Shown one piece after another: positions 9,700 to 61,719 of a stretch of 64,000 nt of DNA; positions within the stretch are counted from its first letter, which is position 1; every line of letters begins with the position of its first letter. The position numbers and the translations under genes are program-made. Below the pieces are notes generated by a model that saw nothing but the letters and a program-made list of their open reading frames with translations, did not search any database and had not been told where the DNA came from. Origin of the DNA: an uncultured beta proteobacterium (GTDB lineage Bacteria; Pseudomonadota; Gammaproteobacteria; Burkholderiales; Casimicrobiaceae); the NCBI GenBank assembly GCA_963711235.1, contig CAVQDI010000002.1:206395-270394 (forward strand). The letters run 5' to 3'.

Positions 9700-9777
9700 G
9701 CGCCCGTAGCTCAGTTGGATTAGAGTACCTGGCTACGAACCAGGGGGTCGTGGGTTCAAATCCTGCCGGGCGCGCCA
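9700..9777 (+). tRNA. tRNA-Arg (anticodon ACG)
   Basis: Cloverleaf readable by eye: acceptor GCGCCCG/CGGGCGC, anticodon stem CCTGG/CCAGG with loop CTACGAA, T-loop GGTTCAAATCC, encoded CCA. Confidence 0.9.
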
Positions 9778-37209: not shown

Positions 37210-37779
37210 CTAGCGCGTGACCGCCTTCGCCGTTCGCGCCTTGCGCGCGATCTGGCGACGGAGCGCGGCATACCTTTCCTCCCCGTTTTCGCCGAACAAG
37301 GGGTCGTCGACGTGCCGTATTGCGGCATCAATCGAAGCCCAGTCCCCGCTGCGCAAAAGCTTGGCTGCCAGAGGAAGCATCGCAGTTTCCTCCGTCTGCA
37401 TATGCTTGCGGAAATCCGCGACGTAGGCCCGGCCGGGCGTCTCGACATGCTCGCGCGACGTGATCGACCCGTTGACGATGTCGTCCAGAGCGCGGACCAA
37501 CGCGTTTCCGTCTTCCTTCAGACGTGCGTGCTGCTCGCTCAGTTCGTCGACGATTGGACGGGCGTTGACCGCGCGCTCCTTGATCCTTGCAAACGCCAGA
37601 TCCTCCTTGGGATGATGCGACACGTCGGGGTAATGCGTCATGTAGAACATGATGTCCAGCATCAATTCGTAGTCGGGCGACTCGCCCTTGTGAAAGAGGT
37701 CGAACTGACCGTCCAGAAGGTCGAGTAACGTCGCGAAATTGACGTGTTCCGTGTGCCAGAGGGCGATGGAGTCGGACAT
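37210..37779 (-). CDS. Hemerythrin-like (HHE cation-binding) domain protein
   Basis: WHTEHVNFATLLDLL..., HHPKEDLAF, and HMQTEETAMLPLA. Paralogous to 44108-44695. Confidence 0.75.
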   Translation of the reverse strand: MSDSIALWHTEHVNFATLLDLLDGQFDLFHKGESPDYELMLDIMFYMTHYPDVSHHPKEDLAFARIKERAVNARPIVDELSEQHARLKEDGNALVRALDDIVNGSITSREHVETPGRAYVADFRKHMQTEETAMLPLAAKLLRSGDWASIDAAIRHVDDPLFGENGEERYAALRRQIARKARTAKAVTR

Positions 37780-42609: not shown

Positions 42610-44004
42610 ATGGTTTACTCCGCAGCGAGCACGGGCGTCTCATTTGACCCGGATCTAATCCGCAAGTACGACCGCCTTGGCCCACGCTACACCTCCTATC
42701 CAACGGCAGATCGTTTTACCGAAGCGTTTACCGCCGACGATCTGGTTGACGCGCTCTTCAACCGCCAAACCGCCGGAGCGCCGTTGTCGCTGTACGTGCA
42801 CCTGCCGTTTTGCGATACGGTTTGTTACTACTGCGCCTGCAACAAGGTCCTCACCAAGGACCATAGTCGCTCGGCGAAGTACATCCGCTACCTTGGGAAG
42901 GAGGTCGCCATCCTGTCGGCGCTGGTCAGTCCCGAATCGCCAGTCAAGCAGCTGCACTGGGGCGGAGGCACGCCGACGTTTCTGTCAGCGGACGAGATGA
43001 GGCTATTGATGCGCGTCCTGCACGAAAACTTTAGCTTCGACGAGGACGCCGAGCTCGCAATCGAAATCGACCCGCGCAAGGCAAGTCACGCGACCGTTGG
43101 GTTGCTGGCCGAACTGGGCTTTAACCGGATGAGTGTAGGTGTCCAGGATTTCGACTCTGACGTGCAAAGAGCGGTGAACCGCCTCCAAAGCGAGGCCGAA
43201 ACGCTTATCGTCATGGACGCGGCGCGGGCGAACGGCTTCCGCTCAATCAACGTTGATCTAATCTATGGTCTGCCGCGTCAAACAGTACCCGGCTTCTGCA
43301 GAACGCTCGACCAAGTGATCGGGGCGGCACCAGAACGGATCGCACTGTACAGCTACGCCCACGTCCCGCACTTATTCAAGCCGCAGCGGCAGATCAGCGA
43401 AGCCGAATTGCCAACCTCGGACGCCAAGCTTGCGCTCCTCGAGCTGGCGATTGACAAGCTGACGGCTGCGGGTTACGTCTACATTGGCATGGACCATTTC
43501 GCTAAGCCCCATGATGAGCTCGCTGTGGCGCAGCGGCAGGGGAAATTGCACCGCAATTTCCAAGGCTACTCGACCAATGCCGATTGCGATTTACTATCGA
43601 TCGGTATTTCGGCGATCGGCAAGACCGGCACAACTTATAGCCAGAACCTGCGCACTCTGGATGAGTATTACGGCCGGCTCGACGCCGACGCGTTACCGTG
43701 TTTTCGCGGCTGGCGGCTTTCCGCCGACGATCTGTTGCGGCGCGATGTTATCCATGCGCTTATGTCCCACTTCACTGTATCATTCGAGCGAGTCGAAGCC
43801 GTGCATGCGATCGCGTTCAACGAGTATTTCACAGCAGAGCTGAAGGAACTTGAACACCTGGTCGATGACGGATTGATCGAAATCGCGTCAGATACGATCA
43901 TCGTGACGCGGCGCGGCCGGCTTCTGGTCCGTTCCATAGCGATGATATTCGACCGCCATCTGCGCCTGCAGCGCGAGCAGGCACGCTATTCGCGCTTGAT
44001 CTGA
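42610..44004 (+). CDS. hemN: Oxygen-independent coproporphyrinogen III oxidase (radical SAM)
   Basis: RYTSYPTADRF, SLYVHLPFCDTVCYYCACN (CxxxCxxC), GGGTPTFL, and a HemN C-terminal domain. 464 aa. Confidence 0.9.
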   Translation: MVYSAASTGVSFDPDLIRKYDRLGPRYTSYPTADRFTEAFTADDLVDALFNRQTAGAPLSLYVHLPFCDTVCYYCACNKVLTKDHSRSAKYIRYLGKEVAILSALVSPESPVKQLHWGGGTPTFLSADEMRLLMRVLHENFSFDEDAELAIEIDPRKASHATVGLLAELGFNRMSVGVQDFDSDVQRAVNRLQSEAETLIVMDAARANGFRSINVDLIYGLPRQTVPGFCRTLDQVIGAAPERIALYSYAHVPHLFKPQRQISEAELPTSDAKLALLELAIDKLTAAGYVYIGMDHFAKPHDELAVAQRQGKLHRNFQGYSTNADCDLLSIGISAIGKTGTTYSQNLRTLDEYYGRLDADALPCFRGWRLSADDLLRRDVIHALMSHFTVSFERVEAVHAIAFNEYFTAELKELEHLVDDGLIEIASDTIIVTRRGRLLVRSIAMIFDRHLRLQREQARYSRLI

Positions 44005-44049
44005 TCGCTCTCGGCGTTTGGTAGGGGTCTCGGCTCCCTTGGCTTAACA

Positions 44050-44063
44050 TTGATCTGAGTCAG
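44050..44063. promoter_or_regulatory. FNR-type box TTGATCTGAGTCAG
   Basis: 8/10 match, 45-58 nt upstream of the hemerythrin gene start. Confidence 0.4.
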
Positions 44064-44107
44064 GTCCGGAGCCCTGGCGTCGCGGATGCATGTGGGAAGG
44101 GACAGCT

Positions 44108-44695
44108 ATGCAGTCACTTCGCATCATCAAAGACGAACATCGCTCGCTGGCAGCGGTCTTGCACGGCATGCTTTACTTGGTTCACGAGATCCGCGACCGG
44201 GGCGCCAAGCCAAATTTTGCCTTGCTTGGGGCGATGATCTATTACATCGACACGGTTCCGGAACGATTCCACCACCCCAAGGAGGATCAGTACCTGTTTT
44301 GGCTATTGCGCATTCGCCACCCGGATGCGGCGCCGCTGCTTGACCGGCTGAAGTCGGAGCACCAGGCGGGCGCCGAAAGGATACGCACGCTGGAGCAGGC
44401 CTTGATGCGGTACCAGCACGGCGGCGCGGCCGAATTCTTCAACTTCATGGCGGCGGTGGAAGCCTATGCAGCCTTCCACTGGGATCACATGCAAACCGAG
44501 GAAAATGACGTCCTGCCGCTGGCAGAGAAGCATCTCACCGTCGGCGATTGGCAAGCGATCGATGCGGCATTTCTCGGTCACACCGATCCGATGGTCGGCG
44601 TCGACGCAGGAGTCAAGTACGACACGCTGTTCCGTCGCATCGTCAACCTGGCGCCGCCGCCGATCGGCGTGGGACCCGCGAGCGAGCGCGAGTGA
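44108..44695 (+). CDS. Hemerythrin-like domain protein
   Basis: ATG at 44108. IKDEHRSLAAVLHG, FHHPKEDQYLF, and HMQTEENDVLPLAEK. Confidence 0.75.
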   Translation: MQSLRIIKDEHRSLAAVLHGMLYLVHEIRDRGAKPNFALLGAMIYYIDTVPERFHHPKEDQYLFWLLRIRHPDAAPLLDRLKSEHQAGAERIRTLEQALMRYQHGGAAEFFNFMAAVEAYAAFHWDHMQTEENDVLPLAEKHLTVGDWQAIDAAFLGHTDPMVGVDAGVKYDTLFRRIVNLAPPPIGVGPASERE

Positions 44696-47114: not shown

Positions 47115-47444
47115 TCAGTAACCCGACGACCCCTGAAATGCCACCGGCCTGTCCGGCACCGGAAAACGGTAGTAGAGATCGTTCAGATAGCGGGTGACAG
47201 CGAGGATGTCCTCGTCGCTCCAGGCGAGGCCCGTGTTCATCTGCCATCGAAATACTTGCTTCCTGAGACTTGCCCAGTCTGTCGCCAGCCTCTTGTCGCG
47301 CCAATGCACCTGTGCGCTATGGCAACCGATGCAATGGGTGGAATAGAGGAGCTCGCCGCGGGAGCTGTCCGGCGCTGGCTGGGCCGCAACCGCAATTGCG
47401 CCAGCGGTGCAGGCGGCCATTAGCCCCAATGTCAGTCGTCGCAT
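47115..47444 (-). CDS. Small monohaem c-type cytochrome, secreted
   Basis: Signal peptide MRRLTLGLMAACTAGAIAVAA. A single CIGCH. Last gene of the minus-strand string. Confidence 0.75.
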   Translation of the reverse strand: MRRLTLGLMAACTAGAIAVAAQPAPDSSRGELLYSTHCIGCHSAQVHWRDKRLATDWASLRKQVFRWQMNTGLAWSDEDILAVTRYLNDLYYRFPVPDRPVAFQGSSGY

Positions 47445-47543: not shown

Positions 47544-48506
47544 TCAACCGTCGTTCTTAACCATCGGCCATGTCTCATTGGCGTGCTTCAGCAGCGCAGG
47601 ATTGCTGCGGCAGCGGGTGATGAATTCGCGCACCTCCGGCGCATGCCAGGCGTCGCGATAGGCCCGCCACGCATCCTCGAGCGAATCGCGGCGCAGGTCG
47701 GCGGCGGCGAAAGGGAGCGCATTGAGCAGCTTGACCTTGCCGTTGGGCACGACCAGGAGCATCGCCTGCGGTCGCTCGAGCCGCGTTTCCATCTCCGCAA
47801 GAATGTCCCAAGGATAGATCAAAAGGGCCATTCCGGGGCCGATCGACGCGGCGCGTTCTCTCAGCGCGGTAACCGCGGCGCGCCACTCCTCGCTGCTGCA
47901 TGCAATGCGCTGCCAGGCGCCAGCGGCGCGGCCGATGCGCATGAGCGGGCCGGTCACGAATGCGCTGCAGCCGAGCGTTGCCGCCAGATCGAACGCGGCG
48001 ACAATCTCGTGCAGATTAAAGCGGGTGGGAACGAACACCAATTGCGGTGCAAGACCGCGCGCGACCAATCGCTCGATGGCGGCGACCGCCGCGGCGAAGC
48101 TCGATCCCGGTCGCACGCGTTCATGCGTCGCCGCCGTCGCTCCATCGACCGAAATCTGGATGCATTCGACGCCGAGCGCCGAGAGCCGATCGGCCGCGGA
48201 ATCGTCGATGTGGCTGCCGTCGGTCTCGATCTTGAGCGCGATGCCGGCCGCGCCGAGCAGCTCCAGCAGATCCCAGCAATGCGGTACACCCAGCGGCTCG
48301 CCACCACCGAAGGCAACGTAGGCGACGCCGAACGCCGCGATGCGACGCGCAAGGTCGATCGCTTCGTCACGGGGAAGCTCATCGTGCCATGCCTTATCGG
48401 GACCGGACTCCTCGCAGCAGGTGATGCAGCGCGCGGCGCAGCGGTTGGTCAGCTGCCAGGCAAGAAAAAGGGGCGCCCGGTAGTCTTCGACCGAGCGCCC
48501 CGGCAT
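47544..48506 (-). CDS. Radical SAM enzyme, PqqE-like core, paralogue 3
   Basis: LFLAWQLTNRCAARCITCC (CxxxCxxC), GGGEP, and IETDG. The C-terminal part is homologous to a SPASM/twitch region (VVPNGKVKLLNALPFAAADLRRDSLEDAW) but has no auxiliary-cluster cysteines. Confidence 0.85.
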   Translation of the reverse strand: MPGRSVEDYRAPLFLAWQLTNRCAARCITCCEESGPDKAWHDELPRDEAIDLARRIAAFGVAYVAFGGGEPLGVPHCWDLLELLGAAGIALKIETDGSHIDDSAADRLSALGVECIQISVDGATAATHERVRPGSSFAAAVAAIERLVARGLAPQLVFVPTRFNLHEIVAAFDLAATLGCSAFVTGPLMRIGRAAGAWQRIACSSEEWRAAVTALRERAASIGPGMALLIYPWDILAEMETRLERPQAMLLVVPNGKVKLLNALPFAAADLRRDSLEDAWRAYRDAWHAPEVREFITRCRSNPALLKHANETWPMVKNDG

Positions 48507-48525: not shown

Positions 48526-48681
48526 TCAGGTGAAGCGGATGTACGGCTGAGCCATCACCTGCTCGGAAATGTCCTCGAGCTTGGGCGTTTCCCACGCGAG
48601 CTTTTGCGCCGGCTGCACCGTATCGGTCTTGCGTTCATCGCCGGTCTTAGCGGCTTCGATCGTCAGGTTCATCTCGCTCAT
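48526..48681 (-). CDS. 51-aa PqqA-like candidate precursor peptide (not in the ORF track)
   Basis: ATG at 48681 with GGAGGG 4-9 nt upstream; stop TGA at 48526-48528. Lies 10 nt after the stop of the upstream rSAM gene and 19 nt before the start of the next. Translation: MSEMNLTIEAAKTGDERKTDTVQPAQKLAWETPKLEDISEQVMAQPYIRFT. Confidence 0.6.
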   Translation of the reverse strand: MSEMNLTIEAAKTGDERKTDTVQPAQKLAWETPKLEDISEQVMAQPYIRFT

Positions 48682-48691
48682 TTTCCCTCCG

Positions 48692-49654
48692 TCAGGTCAC
48701 ACCCGGGACCACGGACAACAACTGCCAACTGTTGGCTTGCGCGTGACGCGAGGGGTCGGCGACCGCGCGCTCTGCTGCCATTAGCACTGTATCACTTCGC
48801 CAGGCGTTGCGGTAGGCCTCCCAGGCCTCCATTAGTGTATGGCGGCGCAAGTCAGCACAGATCTGCGGCAGCGCGGCGGCGACCTTGACCCAGCCGTTGG
48901 GTAGCACGAGCAGGGTTGCCGGCGGCGTTTGGAGACTGCCGCGCAGGCCTTCCTCGAGATCGAACGGAAGATGGCATAACTCCAATTGACCCTCCAGGAG
49001 CCGGCCCATGCGTCGCAACAGGCGGCGAAACGCCCGGTACTGCGCATCGGTGGGCTCGAGCTTGTCCCACAGCCGTGCGGCAGTGCCGATGCGCATAAGC
49101 CGCCCGGTATTGACGCGGAAGGCACCAAGCGCCCGTGCCCGCTCGATGACCGGCCCAGCCTCGTGAATGTTGAGCCGGGTCGGCGCAAAGGTGATCTCGA
49201 GCGGCAGCCCGGCCGCGCGAGCGGCACGGCAGGCCGCATGGGCTTTGGCGAGCGACGCGCCTGGCCGCTGGCCCTCGTAGACCTGCTGCGTGTCGCCGTC
49301 GAGGCTGATCTGCATCGAGCGGATGGGCAGGCGGGCGAGCCGAGCGGCGAGTTCGGCATCGAAGCGCTGCCCGTTGGTCTCGATCTTGAGCTGAACGCCC
49401 GCCCGCCCGAGTGCCTCGGCCAAGGCAACGAAGTGAGGCACCACCAAAGGTTCACCGCCACACAGCATCACATAGGGCACTTCGTTGCGGGCAATCTCAT
49501 CGGCCAGCCGCAGCGCCTCGCCGACGTCGAGTTCATCCCGCAGCCGCTTGCCTGGCGCCGACTCGGTACAGCAATGCAGGCAGCACAGGTCGCAGTCCCG
49601 CGTGATTTGCCACGAGACGAACAGCGGCGCGCATAGCTGATCGATTCGGTTCAT
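48692..49654 (-). CDS. Radical SAM enzyme, PqqE-like core, paralogue 2
   Basis: LFVSWQITRDCDLCCLHCC, CGGEP, and IETNG. C-terminal LVLPNGWVKVAAALPQICADLRRHTLMEAW. The start ATG overlaps the stop of the prenyltransferase gene (ATGA). Confidence 0.85.
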   Translation of the reverse strand: MNRIDQLCAPLFVSWQITRDCDLCCLHCCTESAPGKRLRDELDVGEALRLADEIARNEVPYVMLCGGEPLVVPHFVALAEALGRAGVQLKIETNGQRFDAELAARLARLPIRSMQISLDGDTQQVYEGQRPGASLAKAHAACRAARAAGLPLEITFAPTRLNIHEAGPVIERARALGAFRVNTGRLMRIGTAARLWDKLEPTDAQYRAFRRLLRRMGRLLEGQLELCHLPFDLEEGLRGSLQTPPATLLVLPNGWVKVAAALPQICADLRRHTLMEAWEAYRNAWRSDTVLMAAERAVADPSRHAQANSWQLLSVVPGVT

Positions 49655-50601
49655 AAGCGCAACGGGTGCAACGCATGCACCAGGACGCCGGCCGTAAAAA
49701 GCCCGACGCAGACAAGATAGCAGCCGACGATGCTGCGCATCGCGGGAACGAAGGCACGCGGCGTTTCGTAGCTGTGCAGCGCAGAGCGGCCGCTGGCCAC
49801 GAGCAGCGGTAGTGCCAGCAAGCCGGCTAGGCAGCTAACGGGAAAGATGCCGCTTGCTACACCGGCCAGCACGACCAGCAACCCGGCTGCCGCAAGGCCG
49901 ACATACAGCCAAACCGCGCGCCGGCGGCCGAGCCGTACGACAAGATTGCGCTTGCCGACCAATCGATCCTGGTGGTAATCCGGAATCGCGTTGACGACCG
50001 CGAGTGCCATGATCAAGCATCCCGGCACCAACGACGCGAGGAATGCACCCCAAGACAGGGCCTGGGTATGCAGGTAGAGACTGCCCAGGACCAGCCAGGG
50101 CCCGTACGACAGGGCGATGACCAGCTCACCCAGACCGCGATAGGCCCAACGTATCGGAGGCGCCACATAGAAGATCGCCGCCATGCCACCTAGCAGCGCG
50201 AAGGCAAGGATCGGCCAACCGCCGCGAACGGCCAGGTAAACGCCAATGGCCAGAGCGCCCGCAAAGGCTACTATCCCGAGCAAGAGTACCCCGCCAGACA
50301 TCGGCGGCAGGTCTGCAGGATTGAACACGCGGTCGGTCCCCATGCGTGAATCGAAATACTCGTTGAACGCCTCGACGCCGATGACCGCAAGGACCACGCC
50401 GCCGAATCCGCTCCAGAAGACAGCTGCGTCGAACGCACCCTCGGTGCCGTAGGCCCACGCCGCTCCGAGCAGGTAGGGCAAGACGCCGGCATAGAGGAAA
50501 AAACGATAGCGCACCATGCTGCAGACGGTGAGCAGCCGGCGCAGCGCCGACCGGTCGACGGCGGCCCGGTCGGCGGACACAGGGGTCAGAGATAGACCCA
50601 T
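49651..50601 (-). CDS. UbiA/MenA-family integral-membrane aromatic prenyltransferase
   Basis: About 8-9 TM helices. First Asp-rich motif NEYFDSRMGTD and second motif DYHQDRLVGKRNLVVRLG (MenA-like N-x3-D-x3-G-x-D / D-x3-D-x2-GK). Start is either the ATG at 50601 (16-nt overlap with the upstream gene) or the ATG at 50517. Confidence 0.8.
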   Translation of the reverse strand: MGLSLTPVSADRAAVDRSALRRLLTVCSMVRYRFFLYAGVLPYLLGAAWAYGTEGAFDAAVFWSGFGGVVLAVIGVEAFNEYFDSRMGTDRVFNPADLPPMSGGVLLLGIVAFAGALAIGVYLAVRGGWPILAFALLGGMAAIFYVAPPIRWAYRGLGELVIALSYGPWLVLGSLYLHTQALSWGAFLASLVPGCLIMALAVVNAIPDYHQDRLVGKRNLVVRLGRRRAVWLYVGLAAAGLLVVLAGVASGIFPVSCLAGLLALPLLVASGRSALHSYETPRAFVPAMRSIVGCYLVCVGLFTAGVLVHALHPLRL

Positions 50602-51591: not shown

Positions 51592-51843
51592 TCAACCCTC
51601 GACGAGGCTTCTCTGCCGCAGCTCCGCGATGAACGCGACGACTTCGCGCTCGATCACGTCGGTACTGTCGTTAAAGCGCTCCTTCAGTCGCGTGGCGATC
51701 TCGTGCTCGTCGTGGCCTGCTTCGATCTCGCGCACGACCGCCATGGCCGTCGGATTGAGCGTAAAGACCTTCTCCGAGCGCGTCTCGAAGAGGACGCCGC
51801 CAAATTTCTCCTCGCGTAACTTGACGAATTTTGCGAGCCGCAT
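51592..51843 (-). CDS. PqqD-family peptide-binding (RRE-type) chaperone
   Basis: FGGVLFETRSEKVFTLNPTAMAVVREIEAGHDEHEIATRLKERFNDSTDVIEREVVAFIAELRQRSLV fits the PqqD pattern. Start is the ATG at 51843, or possibly 51897. Confidence 0.7.
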   Translation of the reverse strand: MRLAKFVKLREEKFGGVLFETRSEKVFTLNPTAMAVVREIEAGHDEHEIATRLKERFNDSTDVIEREVVAFIAELRQRSLVEG

Positions 51844-51940
51844 ACTGGTTGGGCCGAAAGAACTGCAGTTTATCTGCAAAGTGGGTCGGAGTAGCATAGC
51901 CGCGGAAAAAGCGGCCGTTCGTCGATTCGACCCACCGGAC

Positions 51941-53236
51941 CTAGGGCGACGGCCCCATCATACCCATTTTCTGTGGCAGCCAGGTCGACAGCGTCGGCCA
52001 GTAGGTGACGATGACCAGGAACACGAGCATGGTGACGAGCCACGGGATGACCGCTCTCGTCAACCGGGTGATGCCAACGCGCGAAATCCCCGAAGCCACG
52101 TACAGGTTCAGGCCGACCGGCGGATGGCAAAGCCCGACCTCCATGTTGACATCGATCAGGATGCCGAGATGCACCGGATTGATCCCGAGCGTCATCGCCG
52201 CGGGGTAAAGAATCGGCGCCATGATGAGGATGACGGAAGACGGGTCCATGAAATTGCCGGCGATGAGCAACAGCAGGTTGGCCAGCAACAGGAACCCCAC
52301 CCAGCCCAGATCCTTGGCAATAATCCAGTCCGCCAGGGCATGCGGAATGTTCTCGTTGGTCAGTATGAAGGAGAACAGCGCCGCATTAGTGATGATATAG
52401 AGCAGCATCGCGCTCATGTTCGCTGAAGTCAGCAGCACCTTGCGCATGTCCCGAAGCGGCATGGCCTTATAGATGAAGACCGACACGAAGAAAGAGTAGA
52501 CTGCGGCCATCGCGGCCGCTTCGGTGGCCGTGAACAGCCCCGAGTAGATGCCGCCGATGATAATGACGACCAACATCAGGCCCCAGACACTCTCGCGAAA
52601 TAATTTCCAGCGAGTAACCCAGCTTTCCCTTGGCATCCGCGGGTAACCGCGCTTCTTCGCGATGTACCAGGTGACAAAACAAAGCATCGTGGTCAGCATG
52701 ATCCCCGGCAGGAGTCCTGCGACGAATAGCGCGCCGATCGACGTATTGGTGGCGATTGCGTAGATGACCTTGGGGATCGACGGCAGCATGAGAATGCCGA
52801 GCGAACCTGCTACCGTGATCACCGCTGCGCCGAATTCCATCGGGAAGCCGCGCTTGACCATCTCCGGCAGGACGATGGATCCGATGGCCACGACCGTGGC
52901 GACACTCGAACCGCAAACCAGCGCAAACATGGCGCAGGCCACGATGCCTGCCAGCGCGAGTCCGCCGTGCCAATGGCCGACCATGGAGGCGGCGAAATTG
53001 ATCATCCGCCGCGCCACGCCACCGTGGGTAAGGAAAGTGCCCGCCAGGATGAAGAACGGGATCGCCATGATCTCGAACCGCTCGATGCCGGTAAACAGCT
53101 TCAACGCGACCGACTCGATCGGCACCTGGGTCATGGTGAACACGAAAGTCAACACCGTGAGCCCCAGCGCGATGGAGATGGGCATGCCGGTGAGCATGAG
53201 CGCGATCAACAGGCCAAAAATGATGGCGGACGTCAT
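51941..53236 (-). CDS. dctM: TRAP C4-dicarboxylate transporter large permease
   Basis: 431 aa, about 12 TM helices. MPISIALGLT..., IPFFILAGTFLTHGGVARRMI, and PPVGLNLYVASGI. Confidence 0.9.
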   Translation of the reverse strand: MTSAIIFGLLIALMLTGMPISIALGLTVLTFVFTMTQVPIESVALKLFTGIERFEIMAIPFFILAGTFLTHGGVARRMINFAASMVGHWHGGLALAGIVACAMFALVCGSSVATVVAIGSIVLPEMVKRGFPMEFGAAVITVAGSLGILMLPSIPKVIYAIATNTSIGALFVAGLLPGIMLTTMLCFVTWYIAKKRGYPRMPRESWVTRWKLFRESVWGLMLVVIIIGGIYSGLFTATEAAAMAAVYSFFVSVFIYKAMPLRDMRKVLLTSANMSAMLLYIITNAALFSFILTNENIPHALADWIIAKDLGWVGFLLLANLLLLIAGNFMDPSSVILIMAPILYPAAMTLGINPVHLGILIDVNMEVGLCHPPVGLNLYVASGISRVGITRLTRAVIPWLVTMLVFLVIVTYWPTLSTWLPQKMGMMGPSP

Positions 53237-53239
53237 CGC

Positions 53240-53860
53240 TCAACGCTTCTCGGAAGGCGTTGCGGGGTGAAGGTTGTCTTCCACCGCCATGCCGATCGGC
53301 AGGATGTCCTTGTCGGAGATTCTCTCGACGCCCGCCACGTCGGTGGGATCGTGATGGGGCAACTCACCGGTGCGGCGGAAGTTCCACGCGACTTGAAGAA
53401 AGCGAAAACACATCAATCCCGACCCACAGGGAATGGCAAGGTAGACCAGCCACATGGGCAACTCCATGTCGGGCGAGGTCTGGTTGGTGTGGGCCAGCTG
53501 CCAGACGAAGCTGGCACCGAACGCGGCCACCACGCCTGTAAACAGAGCTCCTGCGAACAAACCGAAGAAGATGCACTTTCGGCGGGCGCTCTCGGGCAGG
53601 TGATTGATCACCACGTCCACACCGACGTGGACGCCAGTGCGCACGCCGTAAGCGGCGCCGAACTTGGCCATCCACACGAACATGTAGATGCATGCTTCCT
53701 GCGCCCACGAGAGATTGAGCGCGAGCAGCCAATCCTGCACCACGGGAATCGGCAAACCCGCCGCGTAGCGGTGGATGACAGCCACGAAGATGATCAACGT
53801 CGCACCACCCATGAGCAGGGCGATTAGCCACTCCTCCAGATGGTCAAGGAGCTTCAGCAT
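53240..53860 (-). CDS. dctQ: TRAP transporter small permease
   Basis: ATG at 53860. Four TM helices. LEEWLIALLMGGATLIIFVAVIHRY. Stop lies 3 nt before the dctM start. Confidence 0.85.
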   Translation of the reverse strand: MLKLLDHLEEWLIALLMGGATLIIFVAVIHRYAAGLPIPVVQDWLLALNLSWAQEACIYMFVWMAKFGAAYGVRTGVHVGVDVVINHLPESARRKCIFFGLFAGALFTGVVAAFGASFVWQLAHTNQTSPDMELPMWLVYLAIPCGSGLMCFRFLQVAWNFRRTGELPHHDPTDVAGVERISDKDILPIGMAVEDNLHPATPSEKR

Positions 53861-53899
53861 GCCGCCTGTCCCGGGTTTGTCGACTGGTCTTGTCCCACG

Positions 53900-53927
53900 C
53901 AAAAAAAGCCGCTGCGGGCCGCAGCGG
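53900..53927 (-). terminator. Intra-operon rho-independent terminator/attenuator after dctP
   Basis: On the minus strand: GCCGCTGC-GGCCC-GCAGCGGC (8-bp GC stem) followed by TTTTTTT. Confidence 0.5.
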
Positions 53928-53983
53928 CGTTGGTTGCGTCCAGCCGCACCCGTGCCTCCCGCGCGTGGCTCGGTCAGGGCGCC

Positions 53984-54991
53984 TCAGGGCTTGAAGCCGG
54001 TTTCCTTGTAAACAGACTGGATCAGATCTTTGCCGATACGGATTTCCTGGTCACGATGTACCGGCACCAGCGCTTTTTTCCACGTGGCTTTCTGTTCGGG
54101 CGTGAGGGTGATAATCTCGGTCTTACCGGAAGCGTTTACCGCCGCGAGCGCCTTGTCGTTCTCTTCCTTGGCGATGTCGTTAGCGAATTTGGTCGCATCT
54201 TTCATTGCGCCTTCGAGCGTTGCGCGGGTATCGGCAGGCAATCCTTCCCAGAACTTCTTGTTGACGATCACCGCGTATTCGAGCACACCGTGATCGGTCA
54301 TCGTTAGATGCTTCTGCACTTCGTTCATCTTCTGCGTGTAAAAGTTCGATGGCGGATTCTCCGTTCCATCGACGACACCGGTTTGCAGCGCCTGATAGAC
54401 CTCGGAGAATGCCATCACCTGCGGAATTCCCCCCAGAGCGCGAATTTCGGAGTCGAGTACTTTCGACGATTGGATGCGCATCTTCAAACCCTTGACGTCG
54501 CCGGGAAGACGCAGCGGTTTGTTCGCACTGAAGTCCTTGAAGCCGTTGTCCCAATACGCAAGACCGACGATCCCCTTGGATTCAAGCTTCTGGAACAGGG
54601 CTTTACCTACCGGGCCTTCCGTGACCTTGTGTAGCTCCGCAACGTCATCGAAGAGGTAAGGCAGATCAAATACCTCAAATTCGCGTGCACCCAACGGCCC
54701 GAATTTCGCCACCGAGGGTGCCAGCATCTGTACCGCGCCAAGCTGTAGCGCATCGACTTCCTCGCCATCCTTGTAGAGCGTGCTGTTGGGGTACACCTCG
54801 ACCTTGACCCGGCCCTTGGTGCGCTCTTCCGCGAGTTTCTTGAAATACTCGGCACCCTTGCCTTTCGGCGTATCGACGGCAACGACGTGGCTGAACTTGA
54901 TGATGATCGGCTGCTGTGCGGGTGCCCCGAACGCAATCGCTAAACTAGCCAGCGCGACAATTAGTGATGCAAACTTCGTTGCGACCTTCAT
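53984..54991 (-). CDS. dctP: TRAP C4-dicarboxylate-binding periplasmic protein
   Basis: ATG at 54991 with GGAGGAG upstream. Signal peptide. IIKFSHVVAVDTPKGKGAEYFKKLAEERTKGRVKVEVYPNSTLY...LQLGAVQMLAPSVAKF closely follows canonical DctP. Confidence 0.9.
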   Translation of the reverse strand: MKVATKFASLIVALASLAIAFGAPAQQPIIIKFSHVVAVDTPKGKGAEYFKKLAEERTKGRVKVEVYPNSTLYKDGEEVDALQLGAVQMLAPSVAKFGPLGAREFEVFDLPYLFDDVAELHKVTEGPVGKALFQKLESKGIVGLAYWDNGFKDFSANKPLRLPGDVKGLKMRIQSSKVLDSEIRALGGIPQVMAFSEVYQALQTGVVDGTENPPSNFYTQKMNEVQKHLTMTDHGVLEYAVIVNKKFWEGLPADTRATLEGAMKDATKFANDIAKEENDKALAAVNASGKTEIITLTPEQKATWKKALVPVHRDQEIRIGKDLIQSVYKETGFKP

Positions 54992-55022
54992 GTCTCCTCC
55001 ACATAGGGTGCAAAAAGACCTG

Positions 55023-55796
55023 CTATTTCCAGCCAATGCTCACCATCTTGCGACGCATGAAGGCGATCTGCGTTGCGAGCGGCAACTCCTTCGGGCAGAC
55101 ATCGTGGCAAGCGAGCAAGGACATGCAACCGAAAACGCCGCTGTCGTCGCCGACGAGTTCATAGAAATCTGCGTCGCTGCGCGTGTCGCGCGGATCGAGC
55201 CGGAAGCGGGCGATCTTGTTCAGCCCGACCGCGCCGACAAAATCGTCGCGCATGCGCGCGGTGCCGCAACCGGCGACACAACACCCGCATTCGATGCAAC
55301 GATCAAGCTCGTAGATCTTCTGCGCCAGTTCCGGCTCCATGCGTTCCTCGAGCCGGGAAAGGTCCACCTCTTTCTGCCGCGTGTGCACCCAGGCCTGCAG
55401 CCGCTCGCTCATCGCTCGCATCCACTTGCCGGTGTTCACCGAAAGGTCGGCGATCAATTCGAAGACCGGCAGGGGCGCCAGCGTGATCTCCGGCGCCAGG
55501 TTCTGCGTCAGCGTACGGCAGGCGAGCCCTGGGCGCCCATTGATCAGCATGCCGCAGCTGCCGCATATCCCGGCGCGACAGACGAAGTCAAATTGCAGGG
55601 ACGCGTCCTGCTTTTCGCGGATTTCGTTGAGCGCGATGAACAGCGTCATCCCCTCTGCCTCTTCGAGTTCGTAGGCCTGCATGCGCGGAACACTGCCTCG
55701 CTCCTGCGGGTTGTAGCGCAGGACGCTGATCCGCACCTTGCGGTGCGGTCGTTCAGGCGGCACCGGCGGGGATGGCATCGCGGTGGCTTCGGTCAT
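55023..55796 (-). CDS. frdB: Fumarate reductase / succinate dehydrogenase iron-sulfur subunit
   Basis: Cys clusters [32 protein letters not shown] and CHDVCP. The start overlaps the frdA stop (ATGA). Confidence 0.9.
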
Positions 55797-57811
55797 GTCG
55801 CGCCCGATCGTTGCTGGCCTGCGGGGGACGGTGCCAGCGGCTCGTCGATGCGCTCGTTGGGTCCGCGGAAGCGTTCGGGCATTAGCGCCGCGTACGGCAT
55901 CAGGGCCTCCTGTATGACCGTGCGGCTGGCGCTGGCAAGCCGGGTCCTGATCGCCTCCACCTCCGCGGCGCGACGCGCCGTGTCGGGATGATCGACGTAA
56001 TCCTTCGCGCCGTACCCGCGCCACCCCGGCGGCAGCTCCATCTGCATCACGTCGAGCGATTCGCGCGCAAGCGTCGGCAGCACGTCGTCGGCGTTCTTCC
56101 ACGTTGCCAGCGTGCGATTCAGCCATTCGGCGTCGTTGCGCCGCGGATAGTCGTGGCGGAAATGCGCGCCCCGGCTCTCGGTCCGGGTCAGCGCGCCGTA
56201 GGCCACGCACAGCGCCAGTCGCAACATCTTCTGCACCCGGTAGGCGGAGACGAGCTCGGGATTCGGGCCACTTGCGGTCGAGCGCAGACCGATCTTCTGA
56301 CTGCGCTGCAGCAGCGACTGCAGCTCCTCGACTGCGGCGGCGAGCTCCTCGCCAGCGCGGAAGATGCCGACCTTGGCCGTCATGATCTCCTGCATTCGTA
56401 CCCGCAGCGCGTTGGCTTCTTCCCCGCCCCGGTTACCGGCGAGCGCGTCGAGCTTGGCCTGCTCGTGTTCCAGGAACTCGCGGATCAGGCCCGTGGAGAA
56501 TTGCAGGTTGCCCTCGGGACGAGCACAGAAGTCGGCTATGAACTCACCCACGATCATGCCGCCGACGACGGTTTCCGCGACCGAGTTTCCTCCCAGGCGG
56601 TTAAAGCCGTGCAGGTCCCAGCAGGCGGCTTCGCCGGCTGCGTAGAGTCCCTTGAGCGTCGGGCTGCCACCGGTGTGGTCGGTCCGGATCCCACCCATCG
56701 TGTAATGCTGTGCCGGCCGCACCGGTATCCAATCCTTTATCGGGTCGATGCCAAGGAAATAGTGGCAGATCTCCTTCACTTCGCGCAGGTTGCTGTCGAT
56801 GTGTTTGGCCCCGAGCAGGGTAATGTCGAGCCAGAGATGCTCGCCGAAGCGCGACTTCACGCCCGCGCCTCGCCGGATGTGCTCTTCCATGCGCCGGGAT
56901 ACCACGTCGCGCGACGCGAGTTCCTTTTTCTCCGGCTCGTAGTCGGGCATGAAGCGCTTTCCCGCAGCGTCGCGCAGCAACCCACCGTCCCCACGGCAAC
57001 CTTCGGTGACCAGAATGCACGCAGGAAAGATCGCCGTCGGGTGAAACTGGATGGCCTCCATGTTGGCCACCGCCGCCACGCCTGTCTCCAGCGCCAGCGC
57101 CGTGCCGGTACCCTCGCAGATGACGGCGTTGGTCGTCGCACGATAAAGACGGCCCGCGCCGCCGCTCGCAATGGCGGTCGCCTTGGAGACGTAGGCGACC
57201 AGTTCCCCGGTCACGAGGTTACGGACCACTGCGCCGTAGCAGCGAGATCCGTCATGAATCAGCGCCAGGGCCTCCATGCGCTCGTGCACGGTGATCGCGT
57301 TGGCGATTGCCTGGTCGCTCATCGCGTACAGCATGGCGTGGCCCGTGCCGTCGGAAACGTAGCAGGCGCGCCATTTCTTGGTGCCACCGAAGTCGCGTTG
57401 CATCACCAGTCCGTGCGCTTCGTCGCGCTCGGTGATCGTGACCTTCTGGCCGTTGATGATCACCTGCCGGTCACCTTTCTGCACGCGGCTCCACGGCACG
57501 CCCCAGGCGGCAAGCTCGCGCACGGCCTTGGGCGCCGTGTCGACGAACATGCGCACGACGCGCTGATCGGCGCCCCAGTCGCTGCCGCGCACAGTGTCTT
57601 CGAAATGCACGTCCTCGTTGTCACCCATCGCTTTGACGACGTTGCCCAGGCTCGCTTGCATGCCGCCCTGCGCCGCTGCAGAGTGCGATCGCTTGGGCGG
57701 GACGAGCGATAGGATGATGACGTCCTGGCCACGGCGTTTGGCGCCGATGCCGATCCGCAGCCCCGCGAGGCCACCGCCGATCACCAGCACGTCGGTGTAG
57801 ATCACGTTCAT
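55793..57811 (-). CDS. frdA: Fumarate reductase / succinate dehydrogenase flavoprotein subunit
   Basis: [22 protein letters not shown] (covalent-FAD His region), QFHPT, RGEGG-like CRGDGG, and HYTMGG. 672 aa. Confidence 0.9.
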
Positions 57812-58614
57812 CGGGGGCCTCCCACCGCCCCCCCGGCGGCGGGCTGGGGTGACGGTGCCTGCCGCGCAGCCGGCACGTAATGCTCGCCATAGTGGTCACG
57901 GTGCTCGATGCCGATCTTGATATAGGCCGCCAGAGTCGCCACGCCCAGGACCAGGAAAAAGCCCGTCAGCGCCCATTTGGCGAGCTTGAGCCGACGCCGC
58001 AGCGCATTCGCATCGCCGCCTCCGAACCAACCCCATTTTACGGCCAGGCGGTACAGGCCAATCCCGCCGTGCACCTCGACGGTCAGCAGCAGCACAATGT
58101 ACAGCGGCCAGAAGTGTTCGCTCCAGACCCGATCGGCCGATTCGAACGGCCCGATGCGGTCGGGCCGGGTAAGCATGATGTAGAGGTGGACCGAGGCCAG
58201 AAAGAACAGGGCGAAGCCGGTGACGACCTGCCAAAACCAAAGCGTTGTGTCTTCGTGCCGCAGCATCCGCATGTGACCGCGAAAGGTGCTGAACTGACGG
58301 TAGTTAATCGGGAATTTGCGCACCGCCAGCAGGGCGTGCGCTACCACCAGCGCGATGACCAGCGCGACCACGGTCGAGACAATTCCCGGATAGGACCGAC
58401 CGAAGACGAAATAGCCTTCGAAGAATTTCGTAACCATCCACATAACGTCCTTGCCAAGCAGGATCGACGAGACGAAGGCCATATGCGCCCACATGAAAAG
58501 CGCCAGCAGGAGACCCGAGGCGCTCTGCGCCAGGTCAAGTCTCGCCGGCCAATGGCTGCGCCGGGCAGGGTCGGTCAGACCGACGCCGGCGATCAGCGGG
58601 CCGCTATGTTCCAT
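57808..58614 (-). CDS. frdC: Fumarate reductase dihaem cytochrome b membrane subunit (single-subunit, Wolinella/B-type anchor)
   Basis: ATG at 58614 with AAGGAAG upstream. Five TM helices with conserved His residues. Stop overlaps the frdA start (ATGA). Confidence 0.8.
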
Positions 58615-58751
58615 CGCGTACTTCCTTTCCCGGCGTGGTCGACGCCGCGCTCGTTTCCGGGCCCGTCGTCCCGGCTGACCGGCCCCGTCCGCGGGCCGGA
58701 GCGGTCGTCATGGCTAGGGCCTGAAGCTAGCGCGCGGTTCGTTGGCGAGTG

Positions 58752-58765
58752 TTGACCTGCGTCAA
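58752..58765. promoter_or_regulatory. FNR/Dnr-type palindrome TTGACCTGCGTCAA
   Basis: Perfect inverted repeat, 8/10 to TTGAT-N4-ATCAA. Lies in the divergent intergenic region between frdC (138 nt away) and the oxidoreductase operon (106 nt away). Confidence 0.5.
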
Positions 58766-58870
58766 CATAAATTTCGGCAATACGGGGAGAATTCCTGGGT
58801 CGGGAGCAGGTTATTTCCCCAACCAATGAGCCGCCGGGTGCTTGCGGCGAACGCCAAAGCGCAAACAGGC

Positions 58871-59449
58871 ATGTTCCAGATCCGGATTCACGGTCGTGGC
58901 GGTCAGGGCGTGGTATCGGGCGCCGAAATGCTATCCGTCGCGGCATTTCTCGAAGGGCATTATGCCCAGGCGTTTCCCAGCTTCGGGTCGGAGCGCATGG
59001 GGGCGCCCGTAATGGCCTTCTGCCGCATCGACGACAAGGAGATCCGCTTGCGCGAACCGGTGCTGGAACCCGAGGCGCTGATCGTGCAGGACCCGACATT
59101 GCTGCATCAGGTCGACCTGTTCAGCGGCCTCCAGGCGCGTGGCTACATCCTGATCAACTCGACGCGCAGCTTCGAAGAGCTCGGGCTCGGCGCGTTCGCG
59201 CGGGGCGTCGGGCGTTATCGCCTGTGCTCGCTCCCGGCCACCGAGCTGGCACTCAAGCACGTGGGCCGCTCGGTGCCGAACGCGGCGCTTCTCGGCGGTT
59301 TTGCCGCGGTCACCGGGCGGATCGCGCTGGCGTCGGTCATCGCCGCCATCCGCCAGAAGTTTCCTGCCGCGGTGGCGGAGAAGAACGCCGCCGCGGCCAC
59401 GGAAGCGTTCGAGTTTGCCGCTAAAGCGAAGGACACGATCGATGCTTAA
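58871..59449 (+). CDS. 2-oxoacid:ferredoxin oxidoreductase gamma subunit
   Basis: MFQIRIHGRGGQGVVSGAEMLSVAAF...FPSFGSERMGAPV. Confidence 0.85.
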   Translation: MFQIRIHGRGGQGVVSGAEMLSVAAFLEGHYAQAFPSFGSERMGAPVMAFCRIDDKEIRLREPVLEPEALIVQDPTLLHQVDLFSGLQARGYILINSTRSFEELGLGAFARGVGRYRLCSLPATELALKHVGRSVPNAALLGGFAAVTGRIALASVIAAIRQKFPAAVAEKNAAAATEAFEFAAKAKDTIDA

Positions 59450-60695
59450 GCAGACGGAAGGGTCGCGCGCGGTTGCTGAGGCCATCGCGCTCTGCCGGCC
59501 GCAGGTGATCTGCGCTTATCCCATCACGCCACAGACGCATATCGTCGAGGCGCTCGGCGAGATGGTCAAGACGGAAGAGCTGGCCAAGTGTGAGTTCATC
59601 AACGTCGAGTCCGAATTTGCCGCACTATCGGTTGCCATTGGCGCTTCGGCGGCGGGGGTGCGCACTTATACCGCGACCAGCAGCCAAGGCCTGCTGTTCA
59701 TGGCCGAGGCCGTGTACAACGCCGCCGGACTCGGGCTCCCGATCGTGATGACCATCGGCAATCGGGCCATCGGGGCGCCGATCAATATCTGGAATGATCA
59801 CTCCGATAGCATGTCGATGCGCGATGCCGGCTGGATCCAACTCTACGCCGAGACCAACCAGGAAGCGCTCGATCTGCACATTCAGGCGTTCCGCCTCGCC
59901 GAGGCACTGTCCTGTCCGGTGATGGTGTGCATGGACGGCTTCATCCTCACCCATGCCTATGACCGCGTGGACTTGCCGACGCAGCAGGAAGTCGATGCGT
60001 TCCTGCCGCCTTACGAGCCGCGGCAAATGCTTGACCCGGCCGATCCGGTGAGCATCGGCGCGATGGTCGGGCCAGAAGCATTCACCGAAGTGCGCTACCT
60101 GTCGCATCACAAGCAGCTGCGCGCGCTGGGCCTGATTCCGGAGCTGGCCGCCGCATTCCAAAAACAGTTCGGCCGCGAGTCGGGTGGGCTCATCCGGCCC
60201 TACCGCAGCGAAGACGCCGAGACGATCGTGGTCGCGCTCGGCTCGGTCAACGGCACCGTGCAGGAAGTCGTCGATGAAATGCGTGCGGACGGTTCGCGCA
60301 TCGGTTCGGTTTCCATTTGTTCCTTCCGTCCATTTCCGCTCGCTGTCTTGCGTGACGCATTGCAGCACGCCAAGCGCGTGGTCGTGCTGGAAAAGTGTCT
60401 GGCAGTGGGCCTGGGCGGCATTGTTTCCGACGGGGTACGCAAGTCCTTGTCCGGCATCGTACTCAACGGCTACACCGTCATCGCCGGCCTTGGCGGGCGC
60501 GCAATCACGCGAGCGTCACTGAGGCGGCTGTTCGAAGACGCCGAGCGGGACGAGCTCGAACAGGTCACTTTTTTGGACTTGAACGCGGACGTGGTCAGCC
60601 ACGAGCTGGAACGCGAGAGCAAGATGCGCCGCTCCGGACCCACTGCGGAAGCGATCCTGCGCCGCATCGGCACGGTTGCGTCACGGATCGGTTGA
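59442..60695 (+). CDS. 2-oxoacid:ferredoxin oxidoreductase alpha subunit
   Basis: GSRAVAEAIALCRPQVICAYPITPQTHIVE...ESEFAALSVAIGASAAGVRTYTATSSQGL. The start overlaps the gamma subunit stop. Confidence 0.9.
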   Translation: MLKQTEGSRAVAEAIALCRPQVICAYPITPQTHIVEALGEMVKTEELAKCEFINVESEFAALSVAIGASAAGVRTYTATSSQGLLFMAEAVYNAAGLGLPIVMTIGNRAIGAPINIWNDHSDSMSMRDAGWIQLYAETNQEALDLHIQAFRLAEALSCPVMVCMDGFILTHAYDRVDLPTQQEVDAFLPPYEPRQMLDPADPVSIGAMVGPEAFTEVRYLSHHKQLRALGLIPELAAAFQKQFGRESGGLIRPYRSEDAETIVVALGSVNGTVQEVVDEMRADGSRIGSVSICSFRPFPLAVLRDALQHAKRVVVLEKCLAVGLGGIVSDGVRKSLSGIVLNGYTVIAGLGGRAITRASLRRLFEDAERDELEQVTFLDLNADVVSHELERESKMRRSGPTAEAILRRIGTVASRIG

Positions 60696-60711
60696 ACCTG
60701 GAGGAAGTGCC

Positions 60712-61707: not shown

Positions 61708-61719
61708 CAGCATCGATCC

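Follow-up and report, generated by a model that had tools for sequence, protein, structure and literature searches.

Few cofactors are known to derive from ribosomally made peptides; pyrroloquinoline quinone (PQQ) and mycofactocin are the well-known cases, and each of them opened a field. In PQQ biosynthesis, the N-terminal leader of the precursor PqqA binds PqqD, and Glu16 and Tyr20 are the residues that become cross-linked (PMC10906245). Here we describe a 51-codon open reading frame (ORF) from an uncultured betaproteobacterium of the Casimicrobiaceae. The DNA analysed was a 64-kb stretch (hereafter the window; contig CAVQDI010000002.1 of assembly GCA_963711235.1, positions 206,395 to 270,394), and conservation was drawn from protein clusters, species genomes and metagenomes. 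The ORF lies between two radical S-adenosylmethionine (rSAM) genes, in a conserved cassette that also encodes a PqqD-family protein and a UbiA-superfamily prenyltransferase. It is quite probably the precursor or substrate peptide of this PqqD/rSAM/UbiA cassette, and on balance we favor the reading that it is the ribosomal precursor of a polyprenylated, peptide-derived membrane cofactor. The general kind of system, in which a PqqD chaperone and rSAM enzymes yield a peptide-derived product, is already known; new are the obligatory UbiA-type prenyltransferase, the clade of SPASM-less rSAM enzymes, the frozen MAQP[YF]IRFT terminus and the respiratory context.

The ORF reads on the minus strand from an ATG at 48681-48679 to a TGA at 48528-48526, and its 51-aa translation is MSEMNLTIEAAKTGDERKTDTVQPAQKLAWETPKLEDISEQVMAQPYIRFT. 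The GGAGGG sequence upstream occupies positions -9 to -4 relative to the A of the ATG. Start, stop, GGAGGG and translation are all as given in the initial annotation, which had been made from the letters of the window and had singled out a hidden ORF filling the gap between rSAM-2 and rSAM-3. The gap is indeed filled, with leftover spacers of just 10 nt between the end of rSAM-2 and the ATG and 19 nt between the peptide stop and the start of rSAM-3. The features of the locus are listed in Table 1.

Table 1. Features of the peptide gene, its cassette and the flanking genes in the 64-kb window.
Feature	Position	Strand	Basis
Precursor peptide gene, 51 codons	48526..48681	minus	homologues and codon table
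Shine-Dalgarno-like GGAGGG, 3 nt before the peptide ATG and right after the rSAM-2 stop	48685..48690	minus	sequence
Residues 1-29, variable N-terminal region	48595..48681	minus	homologue comparison
Residues 30-39, WETPKLEDIS, PqqA-like motif W-x-[TK]-P-x-[LMI]-E-[DE]-[VI]-S	48565..48594	minus	homologues, PF08042 match
Residues 40-51, EQVMAQPYIRFT, core; M43-T51 invariant, stop directly after	48529..48564	minus	codon table, alignments
PqqD-family protein (precursor recognition element, peptide chaperone)	51592..51897	minus	PF05402, 52.2 bits
rSAM-1, radical SAM, 333 aa	50586..51587	minus	PF04055, position, model
UbiA-superfamily, MenA/UBIAD1-like membrane prenyltransferase	49651..50592	minus	PF01040
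rSAM-2, radical SAM, 320 aa, CxxxCxxC, one conserved C-terminal Cys	48692..49654	minus	PF04055, alignments
rSAM-3, radical SAM, 320 aa, CxxxCxxC, no conserved C-terminal Cys	47544..48506	minus	PF04055, alignments
Terminator-like hairpin, stem 48501-48470, then U-run	48460..48501	minus	folding, alignment
frdCAB, Wolinella-type fumarate reductase (cytochrome b, flavoprotein, Fe-S), upstream, co-oriented	55023..58614	minus	NCBIfam
dctPQM, tripartite ATP-independent periplasmic (TRAP) dicarboxylate transporter between frd and the cassette; context, not a conserved part	51941..55036	minus	gene calls and neighbor comparison
Small cytochrome c-like protein (CIGCH), downstream of the cassette	47115..47444	minus	domain scan, neighbor comparison

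A search of 5.8 billion proteins yielded 549 peptide clusters at 90% identity, and 110 of the 120 best clusters were exactly 51 aa long. A profile search of 1.84 billion representatives added 97 further, more diverged members, and scans of 185,579 species-representative genomes and of metagenomes confirmed 138 and more than 556 peptide loci, respectively. Conservation beside orthologous rSAM genes had been named beforehand as a check on the ORF, and its homologues do lie in a fixed cassette with rSAM genes. Across 156 distinct versions of the core DNA, W30, S39 and M43-A-Q-P-Y-I-R-F-T51 were unchanged, while four codons each were used for Ala44, Pro46 and Thr51, five for Ser39 and all six for Arg49. 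Thr51 was always the final residue, with the stop immediately after it. Since synonymous codons vary and the residues stay fixed, selection is on amino acids rather than on RNA; judging from this codon usage, the gene is real and translated, its protein being under purifying selection. That the frame arose at random in GC-rich sequence was ruled out by the conservation and codon analysis, and a conserved RNA element in place of the peptide by the free variation of the synonymous sites of the ORF. An Rfam scan of the window gave no match at the peptide ORF; its sole match at the gathering threshold was a transfer RNA gene on the plus strand (9700-9774).

Constraint is distributed unevenly along the peptide. 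In homologue alignments, residues 1-29 vary almost freely and the C-terminal 22 residues are nearly fixed; the 29-residue N-terminal extension reported initially is thus present, as an unconstrained region. The consensus in the most distant members is W-x-K-P-x-[LI]-E-D-V-S-G-[KR]-[VI]-M-A-Q-P-[YF]-I-R-F-T. The spacing W-x2-P-x3-[DE]-[IL]-x8-Y, on which the initial annotation had built, fits W30, P33, D37, I38 and Y47. Written as W-x2-P-x3-[DE]-[ILV]-x8-Y, it has a single match across all six frames of the window, where 100 shuffles predict 0.04; this is weak evidence alone because the pattern was picked after the fact. As a signature, however, the W-P-Y frame had to be given up in favor of the invariant C-terminus MAQP[YF]IRFT-COOH. 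The Tyr, present here as Y47, is Phe in four of the 97 distant representatives (P0212, P0213, P0215, P0216).

The peptide gene was found in two cassette architectures. In type A, represented by the window and by metagenome-assembled genomes (MAGs) of Burkholderiales/Casimicrobiaceae, the order is PqqD-rSAM1-UbiA/MenA-like prenyltransferase-rSAM2-peptide-rSAM3, and this six-gene order is kept in nearly all of 80 genome loci (60-98% identity). The MAG labels of the genome loci were Casimicrobiaceae, Burkholderiales, Steroidobacteraceae, Gammaproteobacteria and one Limimonas. In type B (Planctomycetota and others), the order is peptide-PqqD-rSAM-UbiA, with a single rSAM about 43% identical to rSAM-1. 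Because type B has only these four genes, the minimal cassette, as read from gene content, is the peptide, PqqD, one rSAM and the UbiA prenyltransferase. In each architecture the UbiA gene is either flanked by rSAM genes or follows them immediately; its role as an obligatory partner had escaped the initial annotation, as had the respiratory neighborhood described below. Small ORFs beside homologues of the flanking rSAM genes, another check proposed beforehand, were found from the enzyme side too. An enzyme-started search recovered the peptide in 2/2 distinct type B contigs labeled Planctomycetota, the matches also including Phycisphaerales and Sedimentisphaerales, and an ORF of fitting size and position in 2/2 type A contigs (translated in one; in the other, a 50-aa gene call between rSAM-2 and rSAM-3). 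The layout is that of precursors of ribosomally made peptides that are modified post-translationally (RiPPs) in general: a small ORF with a recognition motif and a core, a RiPP precursor recognition element (RRE) protein and a modifying enzyme. The fixed cassette and the conserved core support the initial view of a precursor-type peptide serving the flanking rSAMs and the PqqD-like protein.

Comparison with PQQ showed likeness in the leader half of the peptide. PF08042 (PqqA) was the sole Pfam family touched by the 23-residue C-terminal peptide (12.6 bits, E = 0.15; gathering score 21.1 not reached), and the match spans peptide residues 1-10 and profile positions 1-10 of 19, the leader half. 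Just two of 29 distant members touched this profile; the full 51-mer had no Pfam match, and the peptide had no NCBIfam match. The PqqA analogy drawn initially therefore holds for the leader motif W-x2-P-x3-[DE]-[ILV] and fails for family membership. By this comparison, the resemblance is best read as a shared PqqD-binding leader motif and not as evidence of shared core chemistry, and W30-S39 is a putative binding site for the PqqD-like chaperone. The position four residues before the Tyr, where the canonical Glu-x3-Tyr link to PQQ needs its Glu, is Met43, with E40, Q41 and Q45 close by; Met43 is invariant in the 156 DNA versions, and that link was rightly called impossible.

PQQ systems are further alike in their small precursor, whose Trp is followed 17 residues on by a Tyr, in having a PqqD-family protein as a separate partner, in an rSAM with a fold near that of PqqE, and in a core invariant between species, as expected for a cofactor. 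Unlike in PQQ systems, the Tyr-4 position has no Glu; Glu40 lies at Tyr-7 and is missing in type B, the Tyr is replaceable by Phe, the rSAMs are without SPASM cysteines, PqqB, PqqC and PqqF are absent, and the cassette requires a MenA-like prenyltransferase. None of the annotated loci had a PqqB or PqqC domain. A true PqqA or PQQ operon was ruled out by the sub-threshold PF08042 score and by PqqE (TIGR02109) scores of 56-79 bits for the rSAMs against a cut-off of 381.

The window rSAMs scored 75-81 bits with PF04055 and are 39-42% identical mutually and 36-44% identical to the type B enzymes. rSAM-1 occupies the position of the single type B rSAM (after PqqD, before UbiA) and is the best tblastn match to it in most type B loci. 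The CxxxCxxC motif is kept in at least 99% of the members of rSAM-1, rSAM-2, rSAM-3 and the type B rSAM. No SPASM (PF13186) Pfam match was obtained for the rSAMs of either architecture. The C-terminal part of rSAM-1, rSAM-2 and the type B rSAM has a single conserved Cys, which rSAM-3 lacks at that position; because at most one such Cys is conserved, a twitch or SPASM auxiliary cluster is unlikely in these enzymes. The AlphaFold model of rSAM-1 (pLDDT 88) was closest among PDB folds to SkfB (TM 0.71), then to PqqE, and SkfB (6efn, E = 2e-23) and PqqE were also among its few PDB sequence matches. SkfB and the twitch/SPASM maturases of the SuiB, CteB and StrB type resemble the system as best sequence and fold match and as RRE-dependent agents of peptide radical chemistry, but here the RRE is a separate protein, the enzymes have just 310-340 aa, and the C-terminal Cys residues are reduced as described. 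A site of the triceptide kind (three-residue cyclophane, aromatic-x-x) is fitted by [YF]-I-R by eye only and is kept as a mere lead; no NCBIfam maturase cut-off was reached, and the SPASM cysteines are missing.

The PqqD-like protein passed the PF05402 cut-off (52.2 vs. 23.4 bits), fell short of the PqqD equivalog TIGR03859 (37.2 vs. 46), and was nearest to the lasso-peptide RRE TfuB1 and to PqqD. No gene of the window cassette reached any NCBIfam cut-off. The best NCBIfam matches of the rSAMs were MftC, AhbD and NirJ (111-124 bits against cut-offs of 265-650), with AhbD at 124 and MftC at 122 bits for rSAM-1; mycofactocin, SynChlorMet, GeoRSP, NirJ/AhbD and other curated rSAM systems were rejected as identities, all being far below cut-offs. 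Mycofactocin nevertheless offers a second close comparison. It too is a peptide-derived redox cofactor system first predicted from genomes, with a PqqD-like chaperone and an invariant C-terminal core that must end the protein, and among NCBIfam models rSAM-2 and rSAM-3 both match MftC best. The differences are that MftC (TIGR03962) scored 111-122 bits against a cut-off of 265 and MftB (TIGR03967) 24.6 against 33, that the C-terminus is IRFT and not the Gly-Val-Tyr of MftA, and that MftD, MftE and MftF are absent. Moreover, the product here would be prenylated rather than glycosylated, and its partners would be membrane respiratory complexes rather than nicotinoprotein dehydrogenases.

The peptide might instead be a small protein that stays unmodified, for example one that regulates or assists the rSAM or respiratory enzymes as a subunit, with the PqqD-like protein as a mere binding partner, and the invariant tail could then be a protein-protein interaction motif. 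However, the peptide always co-occurs with an RRE protein and with rSAMs whose CxxxCxxC motif is intact, and its strictly last Thr51 is typical of substrates such as MftA; we regard an unmodified protein as very improbable.

The prenyltransferase matched PF01040 at 88.8 bits (cut-off 34.2), and both Asp-rich motifs, FNEYFDSRMGTD and IPDYHQDRLVGKRNL, are readable in its translation. Its open frame reaches 50943, running 350 nt into rSAM-1; homologue alignments and 310-aa gene calls point to a later start, and the real start is therefore probably near 50583-50592, overlapping the rSAM-1 stop. The best NCBIfam matches were MenA models, all below cut-off (NF004751, 107.5 vs. 264; TIGR00751, 69.7 vs. 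102.15), and UBIAD1 was the only PDB relative by sequence. Likeness to MenA, UBIAD1 and UbiA thus extends to the PF01040 domain, the motifs N-x3-D-x3-G-x-D and D-x3-D-x3-G-K, an adjoining polyprenyl diphosphate synthase in type B and quinone-using enzymes nearby. In contrast to those enzymes, it falls below all MenA equivalog cut-offs and is embedded in a peptide-maturation cassette, with no head-group pathway genes (men, mqn, ubi) nearby.

The MenA matches and the menaquinone-type quinones used by the operon neighbors would also suit an ordinary menaquinone MenA that merely shares the operon, the peptide, PqqD and rSAMs making a soluble peptide-derived cofactor. We consider such an arrangement improbable: in two architectures whose enzymes are only about 43% identical, the UbiA gene either separates rSAM-1 from rSAM-2 or comes directly behind the single rSAM, its MenA scores lie far under the cut-offs, and no other men or mqn gene was present in any examined locus. 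No UbiA-family enzyme is known to act on a ribosomal peptide. None was found in the literature searched, where no paper listed for the combined topics had UbiA or PqqD together with peptide maturation or peptide-derived quinones and no paper contained the core motif strings. Prenylated RiPPs, made with cyanobactin F-family ABBA enzymes or by ComX/ComQ, are alike in that a ribosomal peptide would bear an isoprenoid; the usual acceptors there are Tyr and Trp. Their products, however, are secreted and carry short prenyl groups, and their enzymes are soluble proteins of the ABBA fold or similar to polyprenyl synthases, whereas the enzyme here is an integral-membrane UbiA-type protein with a long-chain synthase adjoining.

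The two architectures differ at one position of the peptide. Each of the 107 three-rSAM loci that could be assessed has Glu as residue 40, each of the 38 one-rSAM loci has Gly or Ala there, and among residues 31-51 position 40 is the only one at which the residue sets of the two architectures fail to overlap (26 vs. 24 unique cores). From this pattern, Glu40 may be a target or a requirement of rSAM-2 and rSAM-3. As an architecture marker, position 32 (Thr or Lys) was rejected, its correlation being imperfect. In one-rSAM lineages, E40 is replaced by Gly and Q41 by Lys or Arg, and neither residue is conserved family-wide. The peptide of three-rSAM lineages is almost always exactly 51 aa long (N-terminal region 29 +/- 1) despite its free sequence, and that of one-rSAM lineages ranges from 36 to 59 aa; the constant length hints at a constraint on spacer length.

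A hairpin follows the peptide gene. It lies 25 nt after the peptide stop, within rSAM-3 codons 2-16; its stem has 12 bp, 10 of them G-C, and leads into UUUUUCUU (minimum free energy -28.2 kcal/mol, z = -2.5). A hairpin of -12 kcal/mol or stronger with a U-run was present in 92/109 type A loci, compared with 7/51 type B loci. In a gapless alignment of 82 sequences, 85% of cells were paired against 78% in shuffles and the covariation score was 0.183 against 0.089, none of 500 shuffles reaching the observed value in either case; compensatory changes were seen at three stem pairs, and sliding the stem partners by 1-3 columns left pairing at only 45-64%. The P-L-F-L codons at the U-run are T-rich solely in rSAM-3 (6.1/12 bases, vs. 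4.1 and 4.6 in the paralogues). The hairpin likely serves partial termination, 3'-end stabilization or damped rSAM-3 translation, any of which would result in an excess of precursor message.

Respiratory genes recur around the cassette. All three window subunits, FrdC, FrdA and FrdB, score above the NCBIfam equivalog cut-offs of the fumarate reductase type that has one cytochrome b subunit, and FrdA was found within 10 kb in 24/62 long type A loci. A NapC/NirT/TorC-like tetraheme cytochrome was encoded just upstream in 16/51 type A loci; other recurrent type A neighbors were 2-oxoacid:ferredoxin oxidoreductase, malic enzyme, FNR/Crp regulators, hemerythrin and HemN. In type B, a six-gene Rnf/Nqr-type complex was present in all seven long loci and a polyprenyl diphosphate synthase directly after UbiA in six of them, and a histidine kinase and response regulator usually came next. 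Fumarate reductase is expected to use low-potential quinones, and it is these quinones that have been gained repeatedly by Pseudomonadota (PMC11707229). No protease, exporter or immunity gene was among the conserved neighbors in either architecture, and no hydroxylase or methyltransferase was conserved in the neighborhood.

The combination of PqqD and rSAM is the usual layout of a RiPP cluster, and the closest fold, SkfB, is a killing-factor maturase, as would fit a secreted antimicrobial or signaling lipopeptide whose prenyl group serves bioactivity and not respiration. Yet Burkholderiales and Planctomycetota share one unvarying core behind a drifting leader, the reverse of antibiotic RiPPs; a conserved exporter, leader protease and immunity gene are absent, and the neighbors are respiratory and anaerobic-regulon genes. 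A secreted product accordingly has little probability.

In the reading that we favor, that of a polyprenylated membrane cofactor, the peptide would be translated from its own Shine-Dalgarno site, and the hairpin and U-run would end or stabilize part of the transcripts, giving more peptide message than rSAM-3 message. The PqqD-family protein would bind the W30-S39 motif and present the C-terminal core, and rSAM-1, whose PqqD-rSAM-UbiA position occurs in every cassette, would perform radical chemistry on the invariant tail M-A-Q-P-[Y/F]-I-R-F-T-COOH. In three-rSAM lineages, rSAM-2 and rSAM-3 would add steps that involve or require Glu40. The MenA/UBIAD1-like enzyme would then attach a polyprenyl chain to the modified peptide or a fragment of it, for which Tyr47, a para-substituted phenol like 4-hydroxybenzoate, would be the most natural acceptor. 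We put at about even the chance that the peptide, or part of it, is the substrate of the prenyltransferase. The product would stay in the cytoplasmic membrane with quinone-dependent anaerobic respiratory enzymes and might act as a lipid-anchored redox cofactor or low-potential quinone surrogate; a role as redox carrier is proposed with low confidence.

A small excised cofactor, similar to PQQ or mycofactocin, would be made from the same genes if one to three core residues (e.g., Tyr47 and a neighbor) were cross-linked by the rSAMs, cut out by a housekeeping protease and prenylated by the MenA-like enzyme on the aromatic head group, yielding a new isoprenoid quinone. This is consistent with MftC being the best NCBIfam match of rSAM-2 and rSAM-3 and about equal to AhbD for rSAM-1, with PqqE as the second-best fold match of rSAM-1, with the small aromatic acceptors normally taken by MenA/UBIAD1-like enzymes, with the adjoining polyprenyl synthase and with the use of quinones by the partner enzymes. 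However, the 9-13 consecutive residues invariant across phyla seem excessive for recognition of a two-residue head group, the conserved surroundings offer no protease, hydroxylase or methyltransferase, and Tyr47 has Phe variants. We therefore judge excision rather unlikely, though clearly less so than the rivals described above.

Several points weigh against the membrane cofactor reading itself. Its functional argument is drawn wholly from gene association. Frd adjoins only about 40% of type A loci, and some cassettes stand alone among housekeeping genes (L167). The replacement of Tyr47 by Phe argues against a universal role of Tyr47 as acceptor and, at least in those lineages, against chemistry with a strict need for the phenol, and one such locus (L165), on a 4.6-kb contig, has no adjacent UbiA gene. 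A stoichiometric 51-aa precursor would be a costly source of a bulk quinone pool, and the Glu40 correlation may be the trace of a single evolutionary split.

If a redox carrier is made, PQQ and mycofactocin might be joined by a third kind of redox cofactor of ribosomal peptide origin and the first of the three to be lipid-anchored, a polyprenylated peptide or peptide-derived head group acting as a low-potential membrane electron carrier; we put this forward as a tentative possibility. Its users would be Wolinella-type fumarate reductase and NapC/NirT-type quinol dehydrogenases in the case of ubiquinone-type Betaproteobacteria, and in anaerobic Planctomycetota it would work with Rnf/Nqr-type complexes. 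As a prenylated electron carrier, it would explain how a menaquinol-type fumarate reductase can operate in ubiquinone-type Betaproteobacteria. It would also imply a new, ribosomal route to a respiratory 'quinone', a UbiA-family reaction new in having a ribosomal peptide as substrate, and peptide rSAM enzymes of a new, SPASM-less class. At least two phyla, and metagenomic lineages in the hundreds, carry the almost frozen core of 9-13 residues, and the four-gene minimal cassette makes the idea directly testable.

With regard to other genes near the cassette, the small cytochrome c was seen at only one (L002) of the 80 genome loci; it was dropped and probably does not belong to the system. Genes of anaerobic life were found elsewhere in the window (33528-34295, 37210-37779, 42610-44695, 58742-63348), encoding HemN, two proteins with hemerythrin domains, an FNR-like regulator whose N-terminus bears a Cys cluster, a glutamate-synthase-like Fe-S flavoprotein and a set for 2-oxoacid:ferredoxin oxidoreductase; in other genomes, too, several such genes stand near the cassette. 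In four type B loci (L116, L151, L162, L163), the Rnf/Nqr-type complex is of hybrid character, with an RnfC-like subunit at its head (RnfC_N, Complex1_51K, 4Fe-4S) and an NqrF-like one as the last (2Fe-2S, flavin adenine dinucleotide and nicotinamide adenine dinucleotide domains), with RnfD/NqrB, a flavin mononucleotide-binding subunit and two Rnf-Nqr membrane subunits in the middle. In L163, NrfD/4Fe-4S/molybdopterin oxidoreductase genes were also present.

Second, partial or degenerate cassettes, each with an intact peptide gene, were observed at six loci (L009, L020, L024, L028, L044, L073). They contained rSAM-2/rSAM-3 fragments or no enzyme genes, and those of L009 and L028 lay directly after frdCAB. 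A full cassette was present elsewhere in the genomes of L009, L024 and L028 (L006, L027 and L017, respectively), and the peptide genes of the partial cassettes may be extra precursor copies. A separate three-rSAM clade from metagenomes (L083, L088, L102, L104, L115, L131, L157) has the core VSERVMAQPYIRFT and enzymes 51-66% identical to those of the window; the hairpin is kept with a different stem sequence. Betaproteobacterial-type cassettes were also found in MAGs labeled Streptomycetaceae and Bordetella parapertussis (L026 and L052), labels that are probably binning or labeling errors. Among the loci with the Phe variant (L165, L166, L081), the cassettes of L165 and L081 adjoin a FecCD/periplasmic-binding-protein ABC (ATP-binding cassette) transporter, with no UbiA visible on the short contig.

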